DNA of 64,000 nt from an uncultured Brachyspira sp. GTDB taxonomy: Bacteria > Spirochaetota > Brachyspiria > Brachyspirales > Brachyspiraceae. This document shows positions 6,584 to 57,111 of this stretch, piece by piece (the stretch's first letter is position 1; the number at the start of each line of letters is the position of its first letter). The notes under the pieces were generated by a model. It did not search any database and was not told the origin of the DNA. It saw nothing but the letters and a program-made list of their open reading frames with translations. Location: NCBI RefSeq assembly GCF_934747485.1, contig NZ_CAKVGN010000005.1, positions 1,636-65,635 on the forward strand, read 5' to 3'. A program made the position numbers and the translations under genes.

Positions 6584-7954
6584 ATGAGTATATTTGATAT
6601 AAAAGGAAATTTAATGAAAGATGAAGAGGGGTTAAATATTATAAACGGCTCTTCATATAAAGTGAGAATTGCTAAGACAAGTAATAGAGATGAGAGAGTA
6701 GATTTTACAAGCGATGATGTTAAAGGAAAATATTTAATTTATCCTTCTTCTGTTGGACTTACCCCTGCTACAGAGAGCTTAACAAAAGATTATATAGGCT
6801 CTCCTTCATCAGAATCATATTTAGGAGCTACAACTTATGCGGGAGATATTTCTTTTGGGGCTTTTGTAAACTCTAATGCTTATTATATGAGTTTGATATG
6901 GGCTAATGTGGATACAAAAGAAAGTACAGGAAACATTATTTGCATTAATTGTTTTAGTGATTTTTCTGTTAAGATTCATAAAAATGAAAATACTATCACT
7001 ATGCTTGAGATTATTAGAGAAGATGAAAATGGTTTTTATAGTGATTTTATTGATATATATGATTCTATGACTCAGCAGGAATTAATTGATGCTATAAACA
7101 AGATAAAAAATATAAAGGCATTTTTAATTACAGGTGATAAAAATGACAAAATAGATTTTAGTAATTTTTTAAAAGAGTTTGAAGAAAATAATTATTTAAT
7201 TAGCTTTAAGAGAGTTGGATTTATAGAGAGCGGAGTATTTAGCGAAGAGGCAAAAAAACTATATCCAAGATTTGTAAATATAATTTCGCCAAGATTTGGA
7301 GAGACTCAGTATTATAACTTAGCATTATCTGACTCATCAAAAAATATTGAAGGCATTCAGTATATAGGCTGTGAAAGCAAATCAATGAGTTTTAATTTTG
7401 CTAATAAAGCATTAACACAAATAACTTCTTCATTATGGGCATCAGGTGAACACACTTTAGATAAAGACAGTATTCTAAAAGAAGAGAGAGCAGAAGAGAG
7501 AGATGTTGTAATGGCTCAAACTTCAAAATATCCAACAAAACTTTTTATTAACGGCACAGAGGCTACTTCTGTTTCTGATATTGCTATTGCTTTTGAATGT
7601 ACTAAAGAAGAGAAATTTAATGTATCAGCAAAGAGATATAATTTCCCAAACAACAAATTTACTTTAACTTTTTCTGGCAATGCAGTTTTTAATACTCAGT
7701 CAAAAGAGCTTTTTTATAATCGTATTTTAAATGGTGATAGGCAGTCATTTGTAATATACAGCAAAACAAAATTTAGAGGCAAAGATTATCCATTTATATT
7801 TGTGAGTGCAGATGTTTCTGGAATTCCTTCCTTTCCTACTATTGAGTCTAAAGATATTTCTGTTTCATTAAACAATTTTAAAGCTTCAGAAGATTCTATT
7901 GAAATGAAAAATAACTATTTAATAGCATTCACAGATAGAGTTGAATTATTTTAA
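6584..7954 (+). CDS. hvp53: VSH-1-like tail protein Hvp53 (probable major tail/tube protein)
   Basis: 456 aa (approx. 52 kDa), beta-rich; last co-oriented virion gene before the sugar island. Confidence 0.65.
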   Translation: MSIFDIKGNLMKDEEGLNIINGSSYKVRIAKTSNRDERVDFTSDDVKGKYLIYPSSVGLTPATESLTKDYIGSPSSESYLGATTYAGDISFGAFVNSNAYYMSLIWANVDTKESTGNIICINCFSDFSVKIHKNENTITMLEIIREDENGFYSDFIDIYDSMTQQELIDAINKIKNIKAFLITGDKNDKIDFSNFLKEFEENNYLISFKRVGFIESGVFSEEAKKLYPRFVNIISPRFGETQYYNLALSDSSKNIEGIQYIGCESKSMSFNFANKALTQITSSLWASGEHTLDKDSILKEERAEERDVVMAQTSKYPTKLFINGTEATSVSDIAIAFECTKEEKFNVSAKRYNFPNNKFTLTFSGNAVFNTQSKELFYNRILNGDRQSFVIYSKTKFRGKDYPFIFVSADVSGIPSFPTIESKDISVSLNNFKASEDSIEMKNNYLIAFTDRVELF

Positions 7955-8157: not shown

Positions 8158-8211
8158 TACTATCAATTAATAATAAATTAGTTGATAATAAGTAAGAAGG
8201 TAATAAATAGA

Positions 8212-9420
8212 ATGCTAGGCAAATTGAAACAGAGTATTAATTATAATGATATGCAAGAAATGAATCGCTATCTTATTATTAAACTATTGATGCAATTAGG
8301 AATATGTTCTAGGGTAGAATTATCAAAGTTATCTGGTTTAAAACAAGCTACAATAACTAATATTATTAATGATTTTATAAAGATAGGTTTAGTTTCTGAA
8401 ATAGGTCCAAAAAATGGAATCAAGGGCAGAAGGTCTATAGCTATAAGTCTTAATAGTGATAATTATAAATTTATAGGTGTGCGACTTACCAGAAGATATA
8501 TTACAGTTGGGTTATTTGATATAGCAGGCAAAAGCTATCTTGTTAGAGAATACAAATTTAATGTTAATGATGGTGTGAATAATACACTTAAAATAATTGA
8601 AACATCTGTTCATGGTATACTTAATGAATATTCTAATGATAATATAATTGCTATAGGAATCTCTCTTCCAGGTCCTTTTATTAGAACTACAGGAATAATT
8701 ACAGTAAATGAATTTCCAGGTTGGGAGCAAGTTTTAGTAGAGGATTATTTTAATAATATATTTCATATACCAGTGTTTTTAGAGCATGATGCTAAGGCTG
8801 GTGTTATGGCTTGTTGGTATATGAATAAATATAATAATGTAAATAAAACTTTAGCTTATGTTATAGCAGGTCATGGAATAGGTGTTGGTGTTATAGTAGA
8901 TGGTAAATTATTAAGAGGCTCTACAGGAACATTTGGAGAAATAGGTCATACTAGCATAGATTTTAATGGACCATTATGTGCATGTGGAAGCAGGGGTTGT
9001 CTTGAAAATTATTGTTCTACGATAGCACTTTCTAGAAGAATAAAAAATGCTTTAGAGCTTGGTGCTAAATCTAGTTTGAGTATTGATTTTACTTTTTCTG
9101 ATATTGTAGAAGCATATAAAAATAAAGATGATTTAACAGTAAAAGAAGTAAATAAAAATATAGAATATTTCAGTGTTGGTATAGTTAATTTAGTTAATAT
9201 GGTAAACCCTGATGTAATAATCATAGGTGATGAAATGGTTAATTTTGGAGATGATTTTCTTAATGTATTAAAATCTAATGTTAGTAAAAGGATCATACCT
9301 GATTTATATAAGAAATTGGATATAAGACTAGGAAATTTTGCTGAAGATGAAGTTTTGATAGGTGCTAGTATTGTAGCTGTCGAATCTATTTTAAAAACAG
9401 GTAATTTAATCAAAAAATAA
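8212..9420 (+). CDS. ROK-family transcriptional repressor (NagC/XylR-like)
   Basis: N-terminal HTH SRVELSKLSGLKQATITNII, GRR motif, GEIGH and CACGSRGCLE zinc motif. Confidence 0.95.
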   Translation: MLGKLKQSINYNDMQEMNRYLIIKLLMQLGICSRVELSKLSGLKQATITNIINDFIKIGLVSEIGPKNGIKGRRSIAISLNSDNYKFIGVRLTRRYITVGLFDIAGKSYLVREYKFNVNDGVNNTLKIIETSVHGILNEYSNDNIIAIGISLPGPFIRTTGIITVNEFPGWEQVLVEDYFNNIFHIPVFLEHDAKAGVMACWYMNKYNNVNKTLAYVIAGHGIGVGVIVDGKLLRGSTGTFGEIGHTSIDFNGPLCACGSRGCLENYCSTIALSRRIKNALELGAKSSLSIDFTFSDIVEAYKNKDDLTVKEVNKNIEYFSVGIVNLVNMVNPDVIIIGDEMVNFGDDFLNVLKSNVSKRIIPDLYKKLDIRLGNFAEDEVLIGASIVAVESILKTGNLIKK

Positions 9421-9498
9421 TTATATTTATTATTATTTAATAATAATTCTATGTAAAAATCAATATATAGTTCATTAACTTTTATTTTATATAAAAAA

Positions 9499-9526
9499 TT
9501 GACAAGTAACTTTTTTTGAATATACT
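9499..9526 (+). promoter_or_regulatory. Sigma70-like promoter of the sugar operon
   Basis: TTGACA-16 nt-TATACT. Confidence 0.6.
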
Positions 9527-9591
9527 ATTTATTATATTGATTAATTTAATTAAGTTAATTAATTAATATAATAAATAAATAGGTGTTTTAT

Positions 9592-10161
9592 ATGGAATAT
9601 AAAGAACTAGTAAAAAAAGTAATTCAAGAAAATAGCACAGTATTGAATCTTGTAAAAAAGGAAGAAATAGAAGTTTTATTATCAGAAATAGAAAAAGCTA
9701 AAACTATTCAATTATATGCTATGGGTCGTATGCAACTTTCTGTTAGAGCTTTTGCTATGAGATTAAAACATATGGGATTTGATACTTATGTAGTTTATGA
9801 TACTACTACACCTGCTATAGGTAAAGGCGATTTACTTCTTGATATATGTGCCGTAACAAATGTAGAATTAAATGTTATAAAATGTGCCAAAGAAGCTGGT
9901 GCTAGAATAGGGGTTTTGACAGCCCATCCAGAAAATGAGCATGGTAAATTAGCAGATTTTTCAGTTTTTGTTCCTGGACAAATTTTTGGTGGAGAAAAGG
10001 AAGTAAAATCTATACAGCCAATGGCATCTTTACTTGAACAATCCATGTTTTTATTTGTTGATATAATTGTTATGATGCTAATAGAAAGAAATAATATAGA
10101 TATAAGCAAAATGCATAAAAGGCATACAAATCTTGAAGGTATACCAACTGCTTTTGCTTAA
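9592..10161 (+). CDS. SIS-domain sugar-phosphate isomerase (6-phospho-3-hexuloisomerase/HxlB-like)
   Basis: GR..L..RAFAMRLKHMG, TTPAI.KGDLL, QPMASL.EQ and RHTNLE motifs; AGGTG RBS. Confidence 0.85.
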   Translation: MEYKELVKKVIQENSTVLNLVKKEEIEVLLSEIEKAKTIQLYAMGRMQLSVRAFAMRLKHMGFDTYVVYDTTTPAIGKGDLLLDICAVTNVELNVIKCAKEAGARIGVLTAHPENEHGKLADFSVFVPGQIFGGEKEVKSIQPMASLLEQSMFLFVDIIVMMLIERNNIDISKMHKRHTNLEGIPTAFA

Positions 10162-10192
10162 TTAATTATATTAAAAAAAGGAGGAATTTCTT

Positions 10193-10663
10193 ATGAGAGA
10201 TGGACAAATTTGTCAAATAGCACAGGTTGTATCAGATATTAAAAAAGCTATGGATCATTTATATAATGATTTTGGTATTGGTCCTTGGGATGTATATGAG
10301 TATGGTCCTCATAATATACAAGATTCTATGTATAGAGGCAAACCAAATACTCAGAGATATGCCTTAGCAGTTACATGGTCTGAAGGTATTCAATATGAAT
10401 TGATGCAGCCTTTAGATGGATATAGTATATATAATGAATTTTTAGAAAAGCATGGAGAAGGTTTGCAGCATATAAAACTTTATTATAAAGATTGTGCTAA
10501 AGCAATTAAGGAATATAAAGAAAAAGGATATGAGGTAATTCAGAGTGGAAGGATAGGTGAAGATGAGTTTTATTATTTAGAATCTACAGATAATGTTGGA
10601 ATTACATTAGAAATAGGAAATGCAGGAAGTATTCCACCACCTTTGTATAAATATCCGTCATAA
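10193..10663 (+). CDS. VOC/glyoxalase superfamily protein (methylmalonyl-CoA epimerase-like)
   Basis: QIAQVV.D, GIGPW and ELMQPLDGYSIYNEFLEKHGEGLQH motifs. Confidence 0.85.
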   Translation: MRDGQICQIAQVVSDIKKAMDHLYNDFGIGPWDVYEYGPHNIQDSMYRGKPNTQRYALAVTWSEGIQYELMQPLDGYSIYNEFLEKHGEGLQHIKLYYKDCAKAIKEYKEKGYEVIQSGRIGEDEFYYLESTDNVGITLEIGNAGSIPPPLYKYPS

Positions 10664-10707
10664 ATTTAGATAAAAAATAAATAAAAAATAAATTTAGGAG
10701 AATAAAA

Positions 10708-11727
10708 ATGAAAAAATTTATATTTACTTTTATTGTTTTATTATTTATAGTTTCATGTGGTAATAATAATGAAACAGCAACTACAAATGATTCTACTGCA
10801 AATACTTCTACACCTGCAGATGGAAAATATACCATGGTAACTGTTCCTAAATTGCGTTCAGCATGGTTTGAAGATTATGAGAATGGTGCTATAAAAGCTG
10901 CTAAAGATTTTGGTATAGAAACATATATGCAAGCACCTTCATCAGCAGATGAGGCACAACAGGTTAGAATAATAGAAGATGCAGTTAATCAGGGTGTTAG
11001 TGCTATTCTAGTTGTTCCAAATAATTCTGCTTCTTGCGTACCTGCTTTCAAAAGAGCACAAGAAAAAAATATACTTGTTTTAACTCATGAATCTCCAGAT
11101 CAAGAAGGTGCTGATTATGATGTAGAGATGATAGATAATGTTAAATTTGGTGAAAGATTTATTGATGAATTAGTTGCAGTTGTTGGAGATAGTGGCGAAT
11201 ATGCAATTTATGTTGGTTCTTTAACTGTTCCTGCACATAACATATGGGCAGATGCAGCTATCGCTTATGCTAAAGCAAAATACCCTAATTTAAAAATGGT
11301 TGGAGATAAATTCCCTGTTTCTGAAGATAGAAATGCAGCAAGACAAAAAACTTTAGAACTTTTAACTGTATATCCTAATTTAAAAGGAATATTAGCATTT
11401 GGAAGTCAAGGTGCTCCTGGTGCAGGACAAGCATTAAGAGAAAAATCAATGCAAGGTAAAATCACAATTTTAGGAACAACAACTCCTAAAGAAATAGCTC
11501 CATTTTTGAAAGATAAATCAGTAACTTCTTCTATTATGTGGAGTCCAGGAGAAGCTTCTTATGCTATGGTTTATTTAGCAAAAATGATATTAGACGGTAA
11601 AAGAGATGAAATAAAACAAGGTCTTGAAATACCTAATTTAGGTGTACCTACTATTAATGGAAAAAATGTATTGTTCAATAGACCATTAGTAATTACAGCT
11701 GAAAATGCAGATAATTATAATTTCTAA
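10708..11727 (+). CDS. Sugar ABC transporter substrate-binding lipoprotein (LsrB/RhaS-like)
   Basis: Lipobox IVSC; VPKL..AWF, AQQVRIIED and periplasmic binding protein type 1 features. Confidence 0.9.
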   Translation: MKKFIFTFIVLLFIVSCGNNNETATTNDSTANTSTPADGKYTMVTVPKLRSAWFEDYENGAIKAAKDFGIETYMQAPSSADEAQQVRIIEDAVNQGVSAILVVPNNSASCVPAFKRAQEKNILVLTHESPDQEGADYDVEMIDNVKFGERFIDELVAVVGDSGEYAIYVGSLTVPAHNIWADAAIAYAKAKYPNLKMVGDKFPVSEDRNAARQKTLELLTVYPNLKGILAFGSQGAPGAGQALREKSMQGKITILGTTTPKEIAPFLKDKSVTSSIMWSPGEASYAMVYLAKMILDGKRDEIKQGLEIPNLGVPTINGKNVLFNRPLVITAENADNYNF

Positions 11728-11771
11728 TAGTTTATATTGTTAAATTATTCTTTAGGCAGGCATAGTATATA

Positions 11772-13274
11772 ATGGAAGATTTTATAAAAATTCAACATAT
11801 ATCTAAAAGCTTTAATGCTCTTAAAGCATTAGATGATGTTTCATTTGAGTTAAAGAAAGGAGAAGCACTTGCTTTATGTGGAGCTAATGGAAGTGGAAAA
11901 TCTACATTAATAAAAATATTAGCGGGTGTTTTAGAGGCAGATAGCGGTACTATAGAAATAAATGGTAAAAAAATGGTTTCTTATGGTCCTCTTTCTGGAA
12001 TTAAACATGGTATTAGTGTTATATATCAGGATATATCATTATTTCCTACTTTAACAGTTTTGGAAAATATATGTCTGCCAAGAATGATAGGAGACGGAGC
12101 TAAATTTTCGTTTCTAAAAAATAAAATTAACGCTGCTAAATCTATATTAGAAGACTTAGAAGTTAATATAGATGTTAATGCTATAGTTGAGGAGCTTCCT
12201 TTAGCTTCTCAACAACTTATAGCTATAGCACGTGCTCTTAATAATAATTCTAAATTAATTATTTTAGATGAGCCTACAACAGCTCTTACAAGAGTGGAAG
12301 TAAATCAATTATTTAAAATAGTAAATAAATTAAAGCAAAATGGAATATCCGTTATTTTTATAAGCCATAAACTTGATGAGGTATTTGAGCTTTGTGATAG
12401 AGTAATATGCTTAAGAGATGGTAAATTGGTAGCATCTGCTTTAATGTCAGATATTTCTGTAGAAGAAATAGAAAGATTTATGGTTGGTCAATCAACTATA
12501 TATACAGGGGTTAATGATTTAGATAAAGATGCTCCTATTATATTAGAAGTTGATTCTTTATGTAAAAAAAATAATTATAAGGATATAAGTTTCAATTTAA
12601 GAAAAGGTGAAATATTAGGAATAATAGGACTATTAGGTTCTGGAAGAACTGAGTTGGCATTATCATTATTTGGTGTATCTAAAGCTGATAGTGGTAAGAT
12701 TTATGTAGATGGAAAAGAATGTAAAATTAATAATATACAAGATGCTGTTAGGGCAAAAATAGCTTATGTTCCAGAAGATAGACTTACAGAAGGTTTAATA
12801 ATGAATTATCCAATAAAGGATAATATGGTTATAGTAAATCTAGAAAAAGTAAAAAATAAGTTTGGTTTTTTAGAGAATTCGTTTATTAATAAAATAACAA
12901 ATTTTTGGATTAAAGAATTATCCATTAAAACAGAATCTGGAGATAATAAAGTTTCAGAACTTTCAGGAGGAAACCAGCAGAAAATAGTTATAGGTAAATG
13001 GCTTGATGAAAATCCTAAAATATTAATTTTAGATGGTCCTACTGTAGGTATAGATATAGGAGCTAAAGCGGGTATTTTTGAAACTATTAAATTATTCTCT
13101 AAAAATAATGGAATGGGTGTTATTTTAATTTCTGATGAAATAAAAGAAATAGTTTCATATAGTAATCGCATAATTATAATGCGTAATGGAAGAATATATA
13201 AAATATTCGATAGAGGAAGTGTAAATGAAAGTGATATACAAGCTATGTTAGATGAACAAAAACGTAGTATGTGA
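11772..13274 (+). CDS. Sugar ABC transporter ATP-binding protein (CUT2, two NBDs)
   Basis: GANGSGKST, LDEPT, YVPEDR, LSGGNQQK. Confidence 0.95.
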   Translation: MEDFIKIQHISKSFNALKALDDVSFELKKGEALALCGANGSGKSTLIKILAGVLEADSGTIEINGKKMVSYGPLSGIKHGISVIYQDISLFPTLTVLENICLPRMIGDGAKFSFLKNKINAAKSILEDLEVNIDVNAIVEELPLASQQLIAIARALNNNSKLIILDEPTTALTRVEVNQLFKIVNKLKQNGISVIFISHKLDEVFELCDRVICLRDGKLVASALMSDISVEEIERFMVGQSTIYTGVNDLDKDAPIILEVDSLCKKNNYKDISFNLRKGEILGIIGLLGSGRTELALSLFGVSKADSGKIYVDGKECKINNIQDAVRAKIAYVPEDRLTEGLIMNYPIKDNMVIVNLEKVKNKFGFLENSFINKITNFWIKELSIKTESGDNKVSELSGGNQQKIVIGKWLDENPKILILDGPTVGIDIGAKAGIFETIKLFSKNNGMGVILISDEIKEIVSYSNRIIIMRNGRIYKIFDRGSVNESDIQAMLDEQKRSM

Positions 13275-13299
13275 TTAATAAATAAAAGGGTGTTGTTTC

Positions 13300-14310
13300 A
13301 TGTATAGTATTTTAAATTTTATGAAAAAAAGAGAAGTTGTTCTTGCTATAATTATTTTTGTACTTGTAATAGTAATATCTTCTTTAACTCCTAATTTTTT
13401 AAATTATGAAAATATATCTAATATATTAAAATCATATACAGTTTTAGGAATTTTTGCTTTAGGAACATTACTTGTAATAATCAGTGGTGGGGTTGATGTA
13501 TCTTTTACAGCTATTGCTCAAGTTGTACAATATGTTGTTGTGTATGTATTATTGAATTATATTTCAGGTAATATATACATAGCTTTTTTATTAGCAATAG
13601 TTTTCGGAGTGATATTAGGTTTATTCAATGGATTTTTAATTTATCATTATAAAATGCCTGCTATAATTATAACTATAGCTACACAAAATTTATTTTACGG
13701 AATATTGTATGTAGTTACAAAGGGTAAATTATTATACGAAGTTCCTCCATATTTCTGGACATTTGCAGATGCAAAACTATTTACAATAACAAATGAAATA
13801 GGAATAAATGTAGGAATTAGTTTAGTTACTGTATTATGGTTTATTATGGCTTTGGCTTTATTTTTTATATTAAAATACACTATTTTAGGACGAAGTGTAT
13901 ATTTAATAGGATGTAATAGTGTGGCAGCAAAAAGAATTGGGGTAAGTATATTAAAAACTACATTATTTGTTTATGGTTTATCAGCAGCTATAGCAGCAAT
14001 AGGTTCTATAGTACATGTTTCCATAGTTCAAACTGTAATACCTAATTCTATAGTTGGTACAGAAATGCAAGTTATTGCGGCAGTAGTTTTAGGTGGTGCT
14101 TCAATTACTGGAGGAAAGGGTTCTGTTATGGGTACTATGTTAGGTGTCCTTCTTTTTGCTATATTAAGTAATAGCCTTACTCTTTTACAAATATCATCAT
14201 ATTGGTATAATGTATTTATAGGGGCAATAATAGTTATTAGTATACTTGTTAATGCTTTACAAGAAATAAAAGCTAGAAATTCTATAGTTCGTGTAAATGT
14301 TGAAAATTAA
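13300..14310 (+). CDS. Sugar ABC transporter permease
   Basis: Hydrophobic; GGVDVS and IAAVVLGGASITGGKG motifs. Confidence 0.93.
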   Translation: MYSILNFMKKREVVLAIIIFVLVIVISSLTPNFLNYENISNILKSYTVLGIFALGTLLVIISGGVDVSFTAIAQVVQYVVVYVLLNYISGNIYIAFLLAIVFGVILGLFNGFLIYHYKMPAIIITIATQNLFYGILYVVTKGKLLYEVPPYFWTFADAKLFTITNEIGINVGISLVTVLWFIMALALFFILKYTILGRSVYLIGCNSVAAKRIGVSILKTTLFVYGLSAAIAAIGSIVHVSIVQTVIPNSIVGTEMQVIAAVVLGGASITGGKGSVMGTMLGVLLFAILSNSLTLLQISSYWYNVFIGAIIVISILVNALQEIKARNSIVRVNVEN

Positions 14311-14324
14311 TATCGGGGGAAATA

Positions 14325-15356
14325 ATGGCTGACTTTGATAAAATATCTTCTTTCATAAAAAGAATGAGAAAGGGAGAACAGTTTTCTCTTGTTATAACAC
14401 TCATATTAGTATATATATTAATGGTAATAGCTAATGGTAATAAATTCTTATCTTTTAATAATATGTATGCTATGGCATATCAGCTTCCTATTATAGGATT
14501 TCTTGCTATAGGAATGATGATATCTGAACTTTCTGGTGGTATTAATTTATCTATTATTGCAAATATGAATTTGAATGGTGTTATAATATATTTAGTATTA
14601 AATGCACTTACTAATGGAAATATGCAAGAATCTAATATATTTTTCATTTTTATAGCAATAATATGTGGATTTATCACAAGTATAATTATTGGTATTGTTA
14701 ATGGTTTTCTTATAACACAATTTAATATACCTGCTATTTTAGTTACTTTAGGAACTATGACATTATTACAAGGTGTTAATTTGGTACTTACGAAAGGATA
14801 TACTATATCTGGATTTCCAAATGAACTTGTATTTATAGGTAATGGAAAAATATTTAATATTCCTGTGGCTATTATACTGTTTATTATTGTAATTATTATA
14901 ACACACTTTATATTGAATCGTTCTTCTTATGGTAAACAATTATATTTAACTGGTGCTAATACTAAGGCAAGTAAGTTTTCTAATGTTAATATATCTAAAG
15001 TTATCATTATAGAATATATATTATCAGCTTGTTTTGCTTCATTTGCTTCTTTGGTTTTAATAGGTCAAATGAATTCTGTAAAAGCAAACTATGCTGAGTC
15101 ATATCTTTTAGTAGCTGTATTAGCAAGTTTTCTTGGAGGAGTTGATCCTAATGGAGGATTTGGTAAATTATCAGGTATGGTATTAGCTTCTATAATATTA
15201 CAATTTATATCTACAGGATTAAATTTAATGCGTTTAGATCCGTTTATGATAACAGCTATGTGGGGAGCAATTATAATAATAATCTTAATAGTAAAAGAAG
15301 TTTCTAGTTTTATCATAGTTAAAATAAAATCTAGTTTCAGTAATAAAACTATATAA
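14325..15356 (+). CDS. Sugar ABC transporter permease
   Basis: Hydrophobic; GGINLS, ILVTLGTM and LGGVDPNGGFG motifs. Confidence 0.93.
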   Translation: MADFDKISSFIKRMRKGEQFSLVITLILVYILMVIANGNKFLSFNNMYAMAYQLPIIGFLAIGMMISELSGGINLSIIANMNLNGVIIYLVLNALTNGNMQESNIFFIFIAIICGFITSIIIGIVNGFLITQFNIPAILVTLGTMTLLQGVNLVLTKGYTISGFPNELVFIGNGKIFNIPVAIILFIIVIIITHFILNRSSYGKQLYLTGANTKASKFSNVNISKVIIIEYILSACFASFASLVLIGQMNSVKANYAESYLLVAVLASFLGGVDPNGGFGKLSGMVLASIILQFISTGLNLMRLDPFMITAMWGAIIIIILIVKEVSSFIIVKIKSSFSNKTI

Positions 15357-15388
15357 ACATTTTATTCTTAAATTAATTATTTATTTTT

Positions 15389-15418
15389 AAGCCTTATATT
15401 AATTTATAAGGCTTTTTT
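15389..15418 (+). terminator. Intrinsic terminator ending the sugar operon
   Basis: AAGCCTTATA-TTAATT-TATAAGGCTT plus T-run. Confidence 0.8.
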
Positions 15419-15499
15419 ATTTTTTTATAAAATTAATTTATGATGTGATGTATAAAAAATATAATAAAAATTTGTATAGCATAAATTTTTTAATGATAA

Positions 15500-15847
15500 T
15501 TAATTTTTAGTTTTAAAAAATGAGTTATATTTGTCTTTTTCTTTCATTATCATATTTGATAAAAATGTGCTATTTGAATATTCGTAATATTGCTTATTGG
15601 GTTTGTACTCAAAGTCAAAATAATTTTTTGATATTAAAGAAGAGTTATAATAAATACTTGATGTAATATTATTTTGATAAAGAAATAAATCGTTATATAT
15701 GTTTTTAAAATAGCTTTGAAAATAGTTATTAAAATATAAATTATTATTAAAATTATTTGTATAATAGTTATTTAAAGGAAAAAAGAAATTATTATATGAA
15801 TATAATGTAATACTATAAAATATAAGTATTAATAAAAATTTCTTCAT
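15500..15847 (-). CDS. Hypothetical Asn/Tyr-rich secreted protein
   Basis: MKKFLLILIF signal-peptide-like start; low complexity. Confidence 0.5.
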   Translation of the reverse strand: MKKFLLILIFYSITLYSYNNFFFPLNNYYTNNFNNNLYFNNYFQSYFKNIYNDLFLYQNNITSSIYYNSSLISKNYFDFEYKPNKQYYEYSNSTFLSNMIMKEKDKYNSFFKTKN

Positions 15848-15907
15848 ACTTACTTATAATGATATCATAAATTTACAGTTTGTCAAAATTTAATTTTTTC
15901 ATTATTT

Positions 15908-16015
15908 GTGGGGACTAGCCCCCTGCGAAGCGTGCCAGTATGGTACACACCCCACTTCTTTTGCGACCGCAGGAAGTGCCTTCGGTATTGCCACAAAGAA
16001 GCAAAAGGCTATTTT
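15908..16015 (-). mobile_element. Family B right half with M1-like and M2 modules
   Basis: Exact 24-nt insert at 15964-15987 relative to the empty allele at 50888-50910. Confidence 0.8.
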
Positions 16016-16082
16016 TTAATTTAAATATATAGTTTATTTTATATTCAAATATATTTTATTATTTATAAAAGGAGTATATTAA

Positions 16083-16442
16083 ATGCAAAAAAATATTTTT
16101 AAATGCAAAGAGTTTTTTAATAGATACATTGTAGAGGAAACGGTTTATAAAGAGGCTGATAATGATGAGTTTATGCCAGTTAAAATATATAGCCGTTCTA
16201 CTTTGGGAAGTAAGTTTAATGATGAAGACATTATAAGCATTAACAGACCAACTTTTAGAGAGAATCTTGATTATGTAAAGGCTAAAGAAAACAATAACAC
16301 AGAAGATGATATATTTGTTTGGCTTGATGTGAGGATTAATGATGAGTTAGCTACAAGCTTACTTGATAAATGGAGCACAAAAGATATTAATGAGTTTGCA
16401 CAGGTGATAAAAAGTTTTTTGTTAGAGAGGCGAGCTTTATAA
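16083..16442 (+). CDS. Putative GTA tail assembly chaperone, short form (gpG-like; possibly VSH-1 OrfE)
   Basis: 119 aa acidic protein, AAGGAG RBS, slippery T TTT TTG near the 3' end. Confidence 0.65.
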   Translation: MQKNIFKCKEFFNRYIVEETVYKEADNDEFMPVKIYSRSTLGSKFNDEDIISINRPTFRENLDYVKAKENNNTEDDIFVWLDVRINDELATSLLDKWSTKDINEFAQVIKSFLLERRAL

Positions 16443-16465
16443 AGATAACTTCTATAGAGCAAGCC
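16415..16465 (+). promoter_or_regulatory. -1 programmed ribosomal frameshift signal
   Basis: In-register heptamer T TTT TTG (16415-16421), 7-nt spacer, hairpin GGC-GA-GCTTTATA(16429-16441)/TATAGAGC-AA-GCC(16453-16465). Confidence 0.7.
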
Positions 16466-16708
16466 GAAATTAATAATTTGGTTACTTATGCTTTTAATAA
16501 TAGAGATATAAAGAATAATGATTTTTGTTATTTGGAAGACGGAATTTTGAGTTTATATACTGCTTTTAATTTTTGGGGAAAGATAATAGCTGAGGCTTGG
16601 TATCAGATAATAAGCGGCAGGTATGTTTTAACTAAGTATGATGAAGATGATTATTTGAGGCTTGGGCTTAATTATGCTATTTATAAGTTTAGAAGTTTAA
16701 TAAAATAG
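16421..16708 (+). CDS. -1 frame extension (gpT-like) giving an approx. 208 aa fusion with 16083
   Basis: The -1 frame is open from 16394 to TAG at 16706-16708; the ORF-track TTG start at 16478 has no clear RBS. Confidence 0.65.
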   Translation, partial: VREASFIKITSIEQAEINNLVTYAFNNRDIKNNDFCYLEDGILSLYTAFNFWGKIIAEAWYQIISGRYVLTKYDEDDYLRLGLNYAIYKFRSLIK

Positions 16709-16788
16709 TAAAAAAATAGTATTGACATTAACAAAATATTATGTAAACTTTAATACTATATATAAAAAATTATGCAGGAATTAAAGTT

Positions 16789-17787
16789 ATGATAAATGTT
16801 AGTTTTAAAGATTTAAAAGAAGCTGTAATAAAAAAATTAAGATTAGCAGATGTTAATGAGGGTGATGCGGAAATTGTTGCTGATGTTTTATGTTATGCGG
16901 ATGTGAGGGGTATTCACTCCCATGGAGTTATAAGGCTTGAGCATTATATAAACAGAATAAAATCTGGAGGAATAAATTTAAAATCAAATTTTAATATAGA
17001 AGCAAAAAAGCCTTCATTTGCATTAATGGATGCAGATGGAGGTTTTGGACATATTGCTATGAAAAGAGCTACAGAGTGGGCAATAGAAACGTCAGACAAA
17101 CAAGGTATTGCTGTAATAGGTATAAAGAATAACAGTCATTGCGGTTCTTTAGGTTATTATAATAAAATGGCTATAGATAGCAAGAAAGTATCTTTAATAA
17201 TGGTTAATACAGACCCTTGCGTAATACCTTATGGAGGAAAGAGTTGTTTTTTTGGAACTAACCCTATAAGTTATGGTTTTCCTGCTACGAAAGATTTTTT
17301 ACTTGGGGATATGGCCACTAGTGAAGTTTCGCTTGGCAGAATATTTACAGCACGTGATAACAATGAAACTATACCAAATAATTGGGGAGTTGATGAGAAT
17401 GGCAATCCTACAGATGACCCTAAAAAAATAAAATATGTTGTACCTTTTGGCGGAGCTAAGGGGTATGTTATTATGACTATGATAGAGGCTTTTACTGGTC
17501 TTTTGATTGGAAATGTTTATTGTAATAACTTAGTTAAGATGTATGGAGATATGGATAAAAAAAGAGATTTGTCAACATTTATGCTTGTAGTTGATCCTTT
17601 TGTGTATAATGAAGATTATTTGGATACTGTTCAATCATTTATAGATGATATAAGAAAAGAGCCTCCATTAGATAAGAATAAGCCTATAACAATACCGGGC
17701 GAGAGAAAAGAAGCTTGTTATAGAGATTACTTAAAAAACGGCATACCATTATCTGAGAAAGTTTATAAATATGTTTTTGGAGATTGA
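16789..17787 (+). CDS. Ldh_2-family oxidoreductase (ureidoglycolate dehydrogenase AllD-like)
   Basis: AD.RGIHSHG, HCGSLGYY, FGTNPI, DMATS, PFGGAKG and IPGE motifs. Confidence 0.9.
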   Translation: MINVSFKDLKEAVIKKLRLADVNEGDAEIVADVLCYADVRGIHSHGVIRLEHYINRIKSGGINLKSNFNIEAKKPSFALMDADGGFGHIAMKRATEWAIETSDKQGIAVIGIKNNSHCGSLGYYNKMAIDSKKVSLIMVNTDPCVIPYGGKSCFFGTNPISYGFPATKDFLLGDMATSEVSLGRIFTARDNNETIPNNWGVDENGNPTDDPKKIKYVVPFGGAKGYVIMTMIEAFTGLLIGNVYCNNLVKMYGDMDKKRDLSTFMLVVDPFVYNEDYLDTVQSFIDDIRKEPPLDKNKPITIPGERKEACYRDYLKNGIPLSEKVYKYVFGD

Positions 17788-45207: not shown

Positions 45208-45442
45208 TTTTTGCAACTTTTGCGAAGTCCGCACAGCGAGCTGCGGGAAGAAGAACAATAAAATTTTTTAACATATTCTAATATAAAAAATAATTTATTT
45301 ATATTAAGGTATTTGCAGGGCTTTGCCCTTAACGAAGTACACACCGTGCAGCACCCCAGTTCTTTTGCCGATAGGACCTACTCGGTACGACCGTAGGAAG
45401 TGCCTTCGGTATTGGTATAAAAGAACCAAAAGAACTGCATTT
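45208..45442 (-). mobile_element. Family B left half (M4) and right half (M2+M5 tandem, M4-like insert)
   Basis: CGAAGTCCGCACAGCGAGCTGCGGGAA; GCCGATAGGACCTACTCGGTA-CGACCGTAGGAAGTGCCTTCGGTA. Confidence 0.8.
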
Positions 45443-53245: not shown

Positions 53246-53557
53246 GTGGTGGCTTTGCCCCTGCGAAGCGTGCCCTTAGGATAGCACCCCCACTTTTTTT
53301 GCCGATAGGCACCTACTTGGTGCGACCGAAGGAAGTACCTTCGGTATTGGTATAAAAGAACCTTATATCCTTTGGATACGCTTCGCGAAGAACTGCATTT
53401 TTTAGCTCAGATTTAGGTATTACGTTATATTTAATACATATTCCTTATATATAAAAATATGACATTTATAAAGCTAAAACACTTGCACTTTTCGCAAAGC
53501 GTACCCGGAGGGTAAAAACTTTGACGAAGTCCGTACCGCGTAAGGCGGAAAAGAACT
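53246..53557 (-). mobile_element. Family B full element, reverse, six modules
   Basis: Three M1 (approx. 53262, 53365, 53492), tandem M5+M2 (53302-53346), M4 (approx. 53523). Confidence 0.8.
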
Positions 53558-56604: not shown

Positions 56605-57111
56605 TTGTTGTTCTTTTTCCCGCCGCTCGCACCCATACCTAAAAGTACTTCCTACGGTCGCAGGCACTTCTTTCGGTCGCCCTGAAGGACTCCTTTCAGT
56701 CGCGGTGCAGACTTCGTCAAAAGAACCAAAAAGTGCAAATACTATAGCTTTGTATGTTTTTGAATATGTATAAACTATATTGTAATGCCAACATTTTAAG
56801 CTAAACAATGCAGCCTTTTTGCTTCTTTGCGGCTGCACCACAGGCACTTCCTTCGGTCGCAAAAGAAGTTGGGTGCGGGGCAAAGCCCTGCAAATAATAA
56901 AAATAAAAAAGTTAAAAATTTTCAGTATATTCTGAAATAAGTATATTTTGTTATATTATTTTTTTATTCAACTTTTTCCTGCCTTCGCAGGTACTTCCTT
57001 CAGTCGCCCTGAAGGAGACTCCTTTCAGTCGCACCACAGGCACTTCTTTCAGTCGCTTTGCGGACTTCGTCAAAGTTTTCGCTCTTCGCCCACGCTTCGC
57101 GAAAGTGCAAA
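56605..57111 (+). mobile_element. Family B full element (56605-56893) plus left half (56967-57111), most heavily filled copies
   Basis: M2 nested in M2 nested in M4, M3 modules, 24-nt M2 at 56836-56859. Confidence 0.85.

Follow-up and report, generated by a model that had tools for sequence, protein, structure and literature searches.

The DNA analyzed here (the window) is a 64,000 bp stretch from an uncultured Brachyspira sp. It starts with phage-like head genes, followed by a tail tube gene, a sugar-uptake island and the gene pair considered in this report (ORF1 and ORF2), the last three on the + strand. The tail tube or major tail protein gene, hvp53 in earlier naming, occupies 6584..7954 and encodes 456 aa with a weak match to Pfam Phage_tube_2 (E 3.3e-5, under the curated cut-off). 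The island at 8182..15356, delimited by its ORFs and a Pfam ROK match, encodes a ROK regulator, a SIS-like protein, a periplasmic binding protein, an ABC ATPase and two permeases. Directly past the last permease gene, at 15389-15414, lies a terminator-like hairpin with a T tail, and ORF1 here therefore probably needs its own promoter within 15850-16080, where one weak candidate is present (TTGCCA, 16 nt spacer, TATTTT, at 15988-16015). A G+C-rich element at 15900-16012, just 5' of ORF1, has 54% G+C between flanks of 10-14%. It looks like a dispersed intergenic repeat, with partial copies at 56817-56875, 45388-45414 and 53321-53349 of the window and in the intergenic gaps of relatives' GTA clusters, for example at three places in locus L024. 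The element has no Rfam match, and no Rfam family was identified within 15300-16900.

ORF1 (16083..16442) encodes an acidic protein of 119 aa (pI 4.85) and is preceded by a ribosome binding site predicted from the sequence, AGGAG at 16070..16074, 8 nt 5' of the ATG. A protein 93% identical to it is annotated as 'putative VSH-1 protein OrfE [Brachyspira pilosicoli WesB]'. Its orthology to orfE, its place beside hvp53 in the GTA cluster and its synteny with the head and tube genes assign ORF1 to the VSH-1 gene set as OrfE. The zero frame ends in ATA AAA AGT TTT TTG TTA GAG AGG CGA GCT TTA TAA, in which a candidate slippery heptamer, T_TTT_TTG at 16415..16421, falls on codons 112-113 in the X_XXY_YYZ register. 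Past two stops at 16388-16393, the -1 frame stays open from 16394 through 16708; it opens only 7 codons 5' of the heptamer. A slip at the heptamer would join 112 codons of ORF1 to a -1 frame extension of 96 codons and a stop (16418..16708), yielding a fusion of 208 aa. Gene prediction lists an ORF at 16478-16708 with a TTG start, eight codons within the conserved core of the extension, and no Shine-Dalgarno sequence precedes this TTG. A stem-loop at 16429..16465, a candidate frameshift stimulator, begins 7 nt 3' of the heptamer and includes the ORF1 stop codon. An earlier note on this DNA had listed the in-register heptamer, the open -1 frame with a fusion of approx. 208 aa, the downstream ORF devoid of a ribosome binding site and the hairpin seven nt past the heptamer, and all of these are borne out. 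ORF1 is proposed here to be the G-like short form of a tail assembly chaperone and the -1 extension to be the T-like C-terminal part of its fusion.

In a single genome such a signal is not exceptional. The same assembly has 2581 ORFs that are 100 aa or longer. Of these, 624 have an in-register heptamer within their last 20 codons, and in 17 the -1 frame is open as well, for 80 codons or more; most of these 17 are taken to be ordinary overlapping genes. The sixteen outside the window (including C8:14246-15049, C54:5025-5954, C24:21787-23643 on the minus strand, and C18:3730-4551) have TTTTTTG, AAAAAAG, AAAAAAA and other heptamers. They may include programmed frameshifts, in transposase genes or elsewhere, alongside ordinary overlapping genes. 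Because the single-genome signal is at chance level and exceeds it only by being conserved, the case rests on comparison with other genomes.

Of 41 genomes searched, 22 have ORF1, namely its own genome and 21 of 24 congeners; it was found in none of the 16 genomes outside the genus. The ORF2 profile is present in 28 of 35 genomes of the genus. Both parts are complete at 29 loci in 27 Brachyspira genomes, 27 of them orthologous and 2 paralogous. A conserved -1 frame ORF follows ORF1 at every one of the 29. The heptamer is TTTTTTG at 26 loci, TTTTTTA at one and AAATTTC at the two paralogues, at the same place and in register. No second in-register XXXYYYZ occurs within the overlap at any of the 22 loci scanned. 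The earlier note had named loss of the slippery site or stops in the -1 overlap as grounds for abandoning the idea. The site is kept in 27/27 orthologues, with another in-register heptamer in the 2 paralogues, and stops interrupt the overlap in none of the orthologues. From the heptamer to the conserved core (IEQxEI...) the spacer takes at least five lengths, all multiples of three and stop-free. In genome G014 a -1 frame stop stands immediately 5' of the heptamer, which narrows the stretch where the shift could occur there to about ten codons, the heptamer included.

The selection pattern changes frame at the heptamer site. Pairwise nucleotide differences 5' of the heptamer are at a maximum at the third position of the zero frame, and in the ORF2 core the -1 frame's third position has the highest value (0.305 vs 0.173 and 0.112 at the other two). 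ORF2 is 58-93% identical among orthologues and 48% identical in the paralogue; ORF1 is 28% identical to its paralogues.

The genomic context of the pair was examined upstream in 12 fetched loci of 12-20 kb. OrfE/ORF2 lies directly past the tube gene in nine of them, with a gap of 0.5-0.8 kb in eight and abutting it in L031; L030 and L035 have inserted DNA between the tube gene and OrfE, and L032 has a gap of about 1.1 kb. Linkage to GTA tail genes, on which the earlier note had staked its reading, extends to the full set: the tube gene is at most 1.2 kb upstream in 20 of 29 loci. The sugar island is missing from the close complete genome G010 and from most other species, and the tube gene is the ancestral upstream neighbor of ORF1. 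The earlier note's remark that the island sets the proposed chaperone gene apart from hvp53 is correct for the window (8182-15356); an excerpt of PMC3532143 shows that the island between OrfE and Hvp53 had already been published for B. pilosicoli B2904 and WesB.

Downstream, the gene directly 3' of ORF2 varies. It encodes a 381-aa tape-measure homologue at 8/29 loci (at one with a small lipoprotein gene between), a 291-aa tail protein at 12/29 and an Ldh-type dehydrogenase at 6/29, the arrangement of the window's own lineage; at the remaining 3/29, the G014 locus and the 2 paralogous loci, no query protein matched. The PHROG tape-measure match of the 381-aa protein is weak (E 3e-3 to 5e-3). 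However, an 801-aa protein of the paralogous loci, itself with PHROG tape-measure matches down to 1.3e-6, shares 47% identity with it over the last 335 residues of the longer protein (E 6e-81). In genome G017 the match to the tape-measure homologue (G017:C1:97986-99076) is in two pieces with an internal TAG and TAA, and this may be a broken gene; OrfE/ORF2 is intact there. The order of tube gene, frameshifted pair and tape-measure gene, seen in part of the genus, is probably ancestral. The pair is thus placed between tube and tape-measure genes in relatives and not in the window itself, where the tube gene is 8.1 kb upstream across the island and the tape-measure homologue is on contig C3. In the same genome, genes for the 291-aa and an 839-aa tail protein are on separate small contigs (C116 and C122), and lysin and holin-like genes are found at C5:61-1610, before the head genes and immediately 5' of the window. 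Compared with species that have tail and lysis genes after OrfE/ORF2, the order of the modules is therefore permuted. A divided VSH-1 genome is attributed to Stanton et al. 2009 in an excerpt of PMC5026251.

At the protein level the pair stands apart. Neither ORF1 nor the -1 part matches any Pfam or PHROG family or any PDB sequence, known chaperone families do not match any of 22 ORF1 sequences even at E up to 10, and what the ORF1 profile finds in the PDB is at chance level (E >=0.19). Genome, protein and viral-contig searches found no homologues outside Brachyspira. A tblastn search of both parts against 50,697 phage records gave no match, and the 47 pattern matches of the ORF2 profile on viral contigs yielded 0 confirmed cases. 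Among 1.8 billion representative proteins the ORF2 HMM has nine matches, six at E up to 1e-10 and eight of them short. A 2594-aa match (E 1e-5) was taken as spurious.

The structural comparison is likewise faint. The ORF1 model is of good quality (pLDDT 90.8, pTM 0.79), and a Foldseek search of it against PDB and BFVD finds nothing at E up to 0.001. Three solved tail assembly chaperones (HK97 gp13, 2OB9; YqbN of the Bacillus subtilis prophage, 3KLU; Rbstp2171, 3FGX) are all among its 53 fold matches; these matches are weak in absolute terms, yet such values are typical of so diverged a class. In the ESM Atlas, the closest named clusters include five Pfam tail-chaperone families, all sub-threshold with scores <0.8. 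The AF2 model of the -1 part is helical (pLDDT 73.7) and matches generic helical folds only.

A real frameshift could also serve some other tail or assembly accessory protein, one that does not chaperone the tape measure. That the pair falls in no chaperone sequence family, that its chaperone fold match is weak and that the tape-measure homologue is not adjacent in 21/29 loci would all suit such a protein. Against it stand the canonical order of tube, frameshifted pair and tape measure in the eight other loci, where no other chaperone candidate lies between the tube and tape-measure genes, the sizes of 119 and 208 aa and the pI of 4.85, which fit a chaperone, and the recovery of all three solved chaperones among as few as 53 fold matches. 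We consider an accessory role unlikely. A chaperone function for the OrfE pair is inferred from synteny, architecture and the weak fold match rather than from family membership. The reading given in the earlier note is supported. On the whole evidence, the pair is quite probably a G/GT-type tail chaperone pair of a VSH-1-type GTA, made by -1 frameshifting.

OrfE itself is expressed: four of its peptides were detected by mass spectrometry in B. hyodysenteriae (supplementary Table S1 of PMC4955376). A conserved tryptic peptide of ORF2 is missing from the peptide table of that study, which is uninformative since the database searched contained no fusion.

If ORF1 and ORF2 were instead separate proteins, ORF2 would have to be translated by reinitiation or from a non-canonical start. 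An ATG overlaps the ORF1 stop (TAATG) in two genomes, G024 and G017, another ATG is found at the first core residue in G020, and gene callers do call ORF2 on its own. These starts are not shared. In 21/29 loci the -1 frame has no ATG, GTG or TTG from its opening up to the conserved core, the positions of the candidates differ among the other eight, and no candidate start has a Shine-Dalgarno sequence at a usable distance. The downstream ORF therefore has no conserved start of its own; the presence of one would, by the earlier note, have counted against the reading. In addition, the -1 frame stays open up to the heptamer through all of the spacer lengths in a stop-rich, A+T-rich genome. The overlapping pair, its second member in the -1 frame without start or ribosome binding site of its own, is thus a feature common to the 29 loci. 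The lengths called for ORF2 in the protein database range from 57 to 108 aa with arbitrary starts, the outcome to be expected if a start is missing. No in-frame ORF1-ORF2 fused protein was found among 5.8 billion protein clusters (64-212, 56-210 and 211-2000 aa ranges). We regard independent translation of ORF2 as unlikely.

With frameshifting preferred, most ribosomes would reach the ORF1 stop and produce the 119-aa acidic short form. While tRNA-Phe occupies the P site and UUG the A site, a minority would slip one base back on U_UUU_UUG and read 96 further codons in the -1 frame to give the 208-aa fusion. Slippage on this heptamer is most likely of the tandem or P-site type. Genes for tRNA-Phe(GAA), tRNA-Leu(CAA) and tRNA-Leu(UAA) are present in the genome; given the dedicated tRNA-Leu(CAA), UUG, which makes up 13.6% of its Leu codons, is not obviously weakly read. 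According to excerpts of PMC4066793, the U_UUG tetramer raises frameshifting in E. coli only 1.8- to 3.6-fold over background, U_UUU_UUG is missing from the efficient bacterial heptamers listed there, and U_UU.U_UU.G is listed as efficient only for the eukaryotic system. The class H_HH.U_UU.Y, to which the paralogues' A_AAU_UUC belongs, is among the most efficient in E. coli (same excerpts). These motif data make the orthologues' heptamer a plausible, if not a textbook, bacterial slip site, and this is the main mechanistic uncertainty. An upstream A_AAA (A_AAG in four loci) was rejected as a common P-site slip site because G014 has T_AAA there, overlapped by the -1 stop; slippage at A_AAA may contribute in some lineages.

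The same fusion would arise if RNA polymerase, rather than the ribosome, slipped. Six T in a row, just after AAAAAG, make up most of the heptamer, and one added U would produce the identical S-F-F-V-R junction. Efficient transcriptional slippage usually requires runs of about 8-9 or longer, by which measure the T6 run is short. Long A or U runs can give rise to mRNA indels, as an excerpt of PMC4066793 notes. The paralogues argue against a transcriptional origin as well: they keep the two frames with AAATTTC, whose homopolymers are no longer than 3, and the same architecture on this heptamer points to tRNA re-pairing on X_XXY_YYZ. We regard transcriptional slippage as very unlikely. That ORF2 is the decaying remnant of a longer gene and the heptamer a chance T run, as the abundance of in-register heptamers at ORF ends might suggest, is hardly credible, with ORF2 under purifying selection in its own frame, intact in 29/29 loci and retained in the diverged paralogue (28% identity in ORF1, 48% in ORF2); identities of 58-93% exclude the loci being recent copies of one another.

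Candidate stimulators of the ribosomal frameshifting that we favor are less uniform than the heptamer. The window's hairpin folds at -14.6 kcal/mol (z -4.44; 0/200 shuffles fold as well) and probably aids the slip in this lineage. The five closest loci tested (L001, L003-L005; the B. pilosicoli-like group) have this hairpin, with z from -2.7 to -4.2, and other lineages have at most weak A+U-rich stems (z -2.1 to +0.75). No consensus stem 3' of the heptamer emerges from 20 non-pilosicoli-like orthologues (RNAalifold; -1.6 kcal/mol, no compensatory pairs). The strong hairpin is specific to its own lineage; across the genus it shows no conservation and no convincing covariation, which the earlier note had suggested checking. 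A stem proposed by hand, AGAAGA.UU/AA.UUUUCU, pairs in 90.6% of cells vs 51-65% when slid. It is not claimed here: these sequences also served to derive it, and its one compensatory pair goes back to a single event. The Shine-Dalgarno-like AGGTGA that the earlier note had pointed out 5' of the heptamer is present at 16402-16407, and nothing points to its conservation beyond coding: relatives have AGGTTA, AGGTAA or AAGTGA, which differ at the third positions of Q-V-I codons. Being variable at synonymous positions, it cannot be called a stimulator.

A full-text literature search found no description of recoding or of a tail assembly chaperone in VSH-1, in line with the earlier note's impression that none had been described for this GTA; a mention in the primary papers (PMC1196157, PMC2648187) is possible. 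The chaperone frameshift is an expected feature that had apparently not been annotated here before. It is to be expected in any siphovirus-like tail module, so the general picture is unchanged, and to phage specialists the finding will be unsurprising. It is a sound gain for annotation, and it brings in a heptamer that is unusual as well as a protein family that lacks a profile. OrfE acquires a proposed function, and a coding region of ~96 codons that annotation pipelines mostly miss or truncate is added. The tail assembly gene set of the GTA would be completed, and the heptamer would offer an easy genetic handle for obtaining tailless or tail-length mutants. [quoted passage not shown]

A broader proposal can be made, towards which we lean only slightly: OrfE and its -1 extension would constitute an unrecognized tail-chaperone family, so far confined to Brachyspira GTAs and prophages, whose recoding takes place on a U_UUU_UUG that is kept genus-wide and is poor in E. 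coli, with each lineage replacing the downstream stimulators (here by a G+C-rich hairpin, in others by no more than weak A+U stems). If this is true, the Brachyspira translation apparatus slips on a motif thought to be inefficient in bacteria, and VSH-1 needs a fixed G:GT ratio despite having its tail genes scattered over the chromosome.

Xu, Hendrix and Duda reportedly described, in 2004, a conserved -1 frameshift in the tail assembly chaperones of long-tailed phages. The spirochaete pair would add to these a case with a heptamer uncommon for bacteria. An excerpt of PMC10274946 cites 'the Xu phages'. The OrfE pair resembles gpG/gpGT of phage lambda: two ORFs overlap in the interval from the major tail gene to the tape-measure gene, the second is in the -1 frame and has no start of its own, and the overlap contains an in-register X_XXY_YYZ site. 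Both systems combine a small, acidic short form with a long form about twice as large. If the pair works as in lambda, the N-terminal part common to both forms would coat the tape measure protein, and the tail tube protein would be recruited by the C-terminal extension. The two pairs have no detectable sequence similarity. The lambda heptamer is G_GGA_AAG, whereas that of OrfE is U_UUU_UUG. The genome studied here also differs from lambda in having its tape-measure gene at another place and a 7-kb sugar island between the tube gene and the pair.

In RcGTA the tail chaperone genes are g10/g10.1. As proposed here for VSH-1, RcGTA has kept a phage-type chaperone beside its tail genes. An excerpt of PMC11409702 mentions an RcGTA 'tail chaperone 2 gene', and according to an excerpt of PMC5026251 its genes, like those of VSH-1, are spread over several loci. 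RcGTA belongs, unlike VSH-1, to an unrelated GTA lineage and its chaperone to another protein family. A frameshift signal, GGGGAAAT, is given for rcc01079 in an excerpt of PMC5026251; it concerns genes other than the chaperone pair.

The paralogous prophage-type locus of Brachyspira (G011:C148, which comprises L034/L063, and G048:C42, which is L064) has the same order of tube gene, ORF1', -1 frame ORF2' and, later, the 801-aa tape measure, and identity to the window's proteins is 50% for the tube, 28% for ORF1 and 48% for the T part. The tail module of L034 (899-9079) encodes a 484-aa tube protein and a 126-aa ORF1', with a KilA-N / BstA-like gene past the tape-measure gene. The locus differs in its heptamer (A_AAT_TTC), in a tape measure twice as long, and in five genes inserted before the tape-measure gene, including one for an SDH-type ClpP-like protease. 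It is probably a true prophage related to VSH-1.
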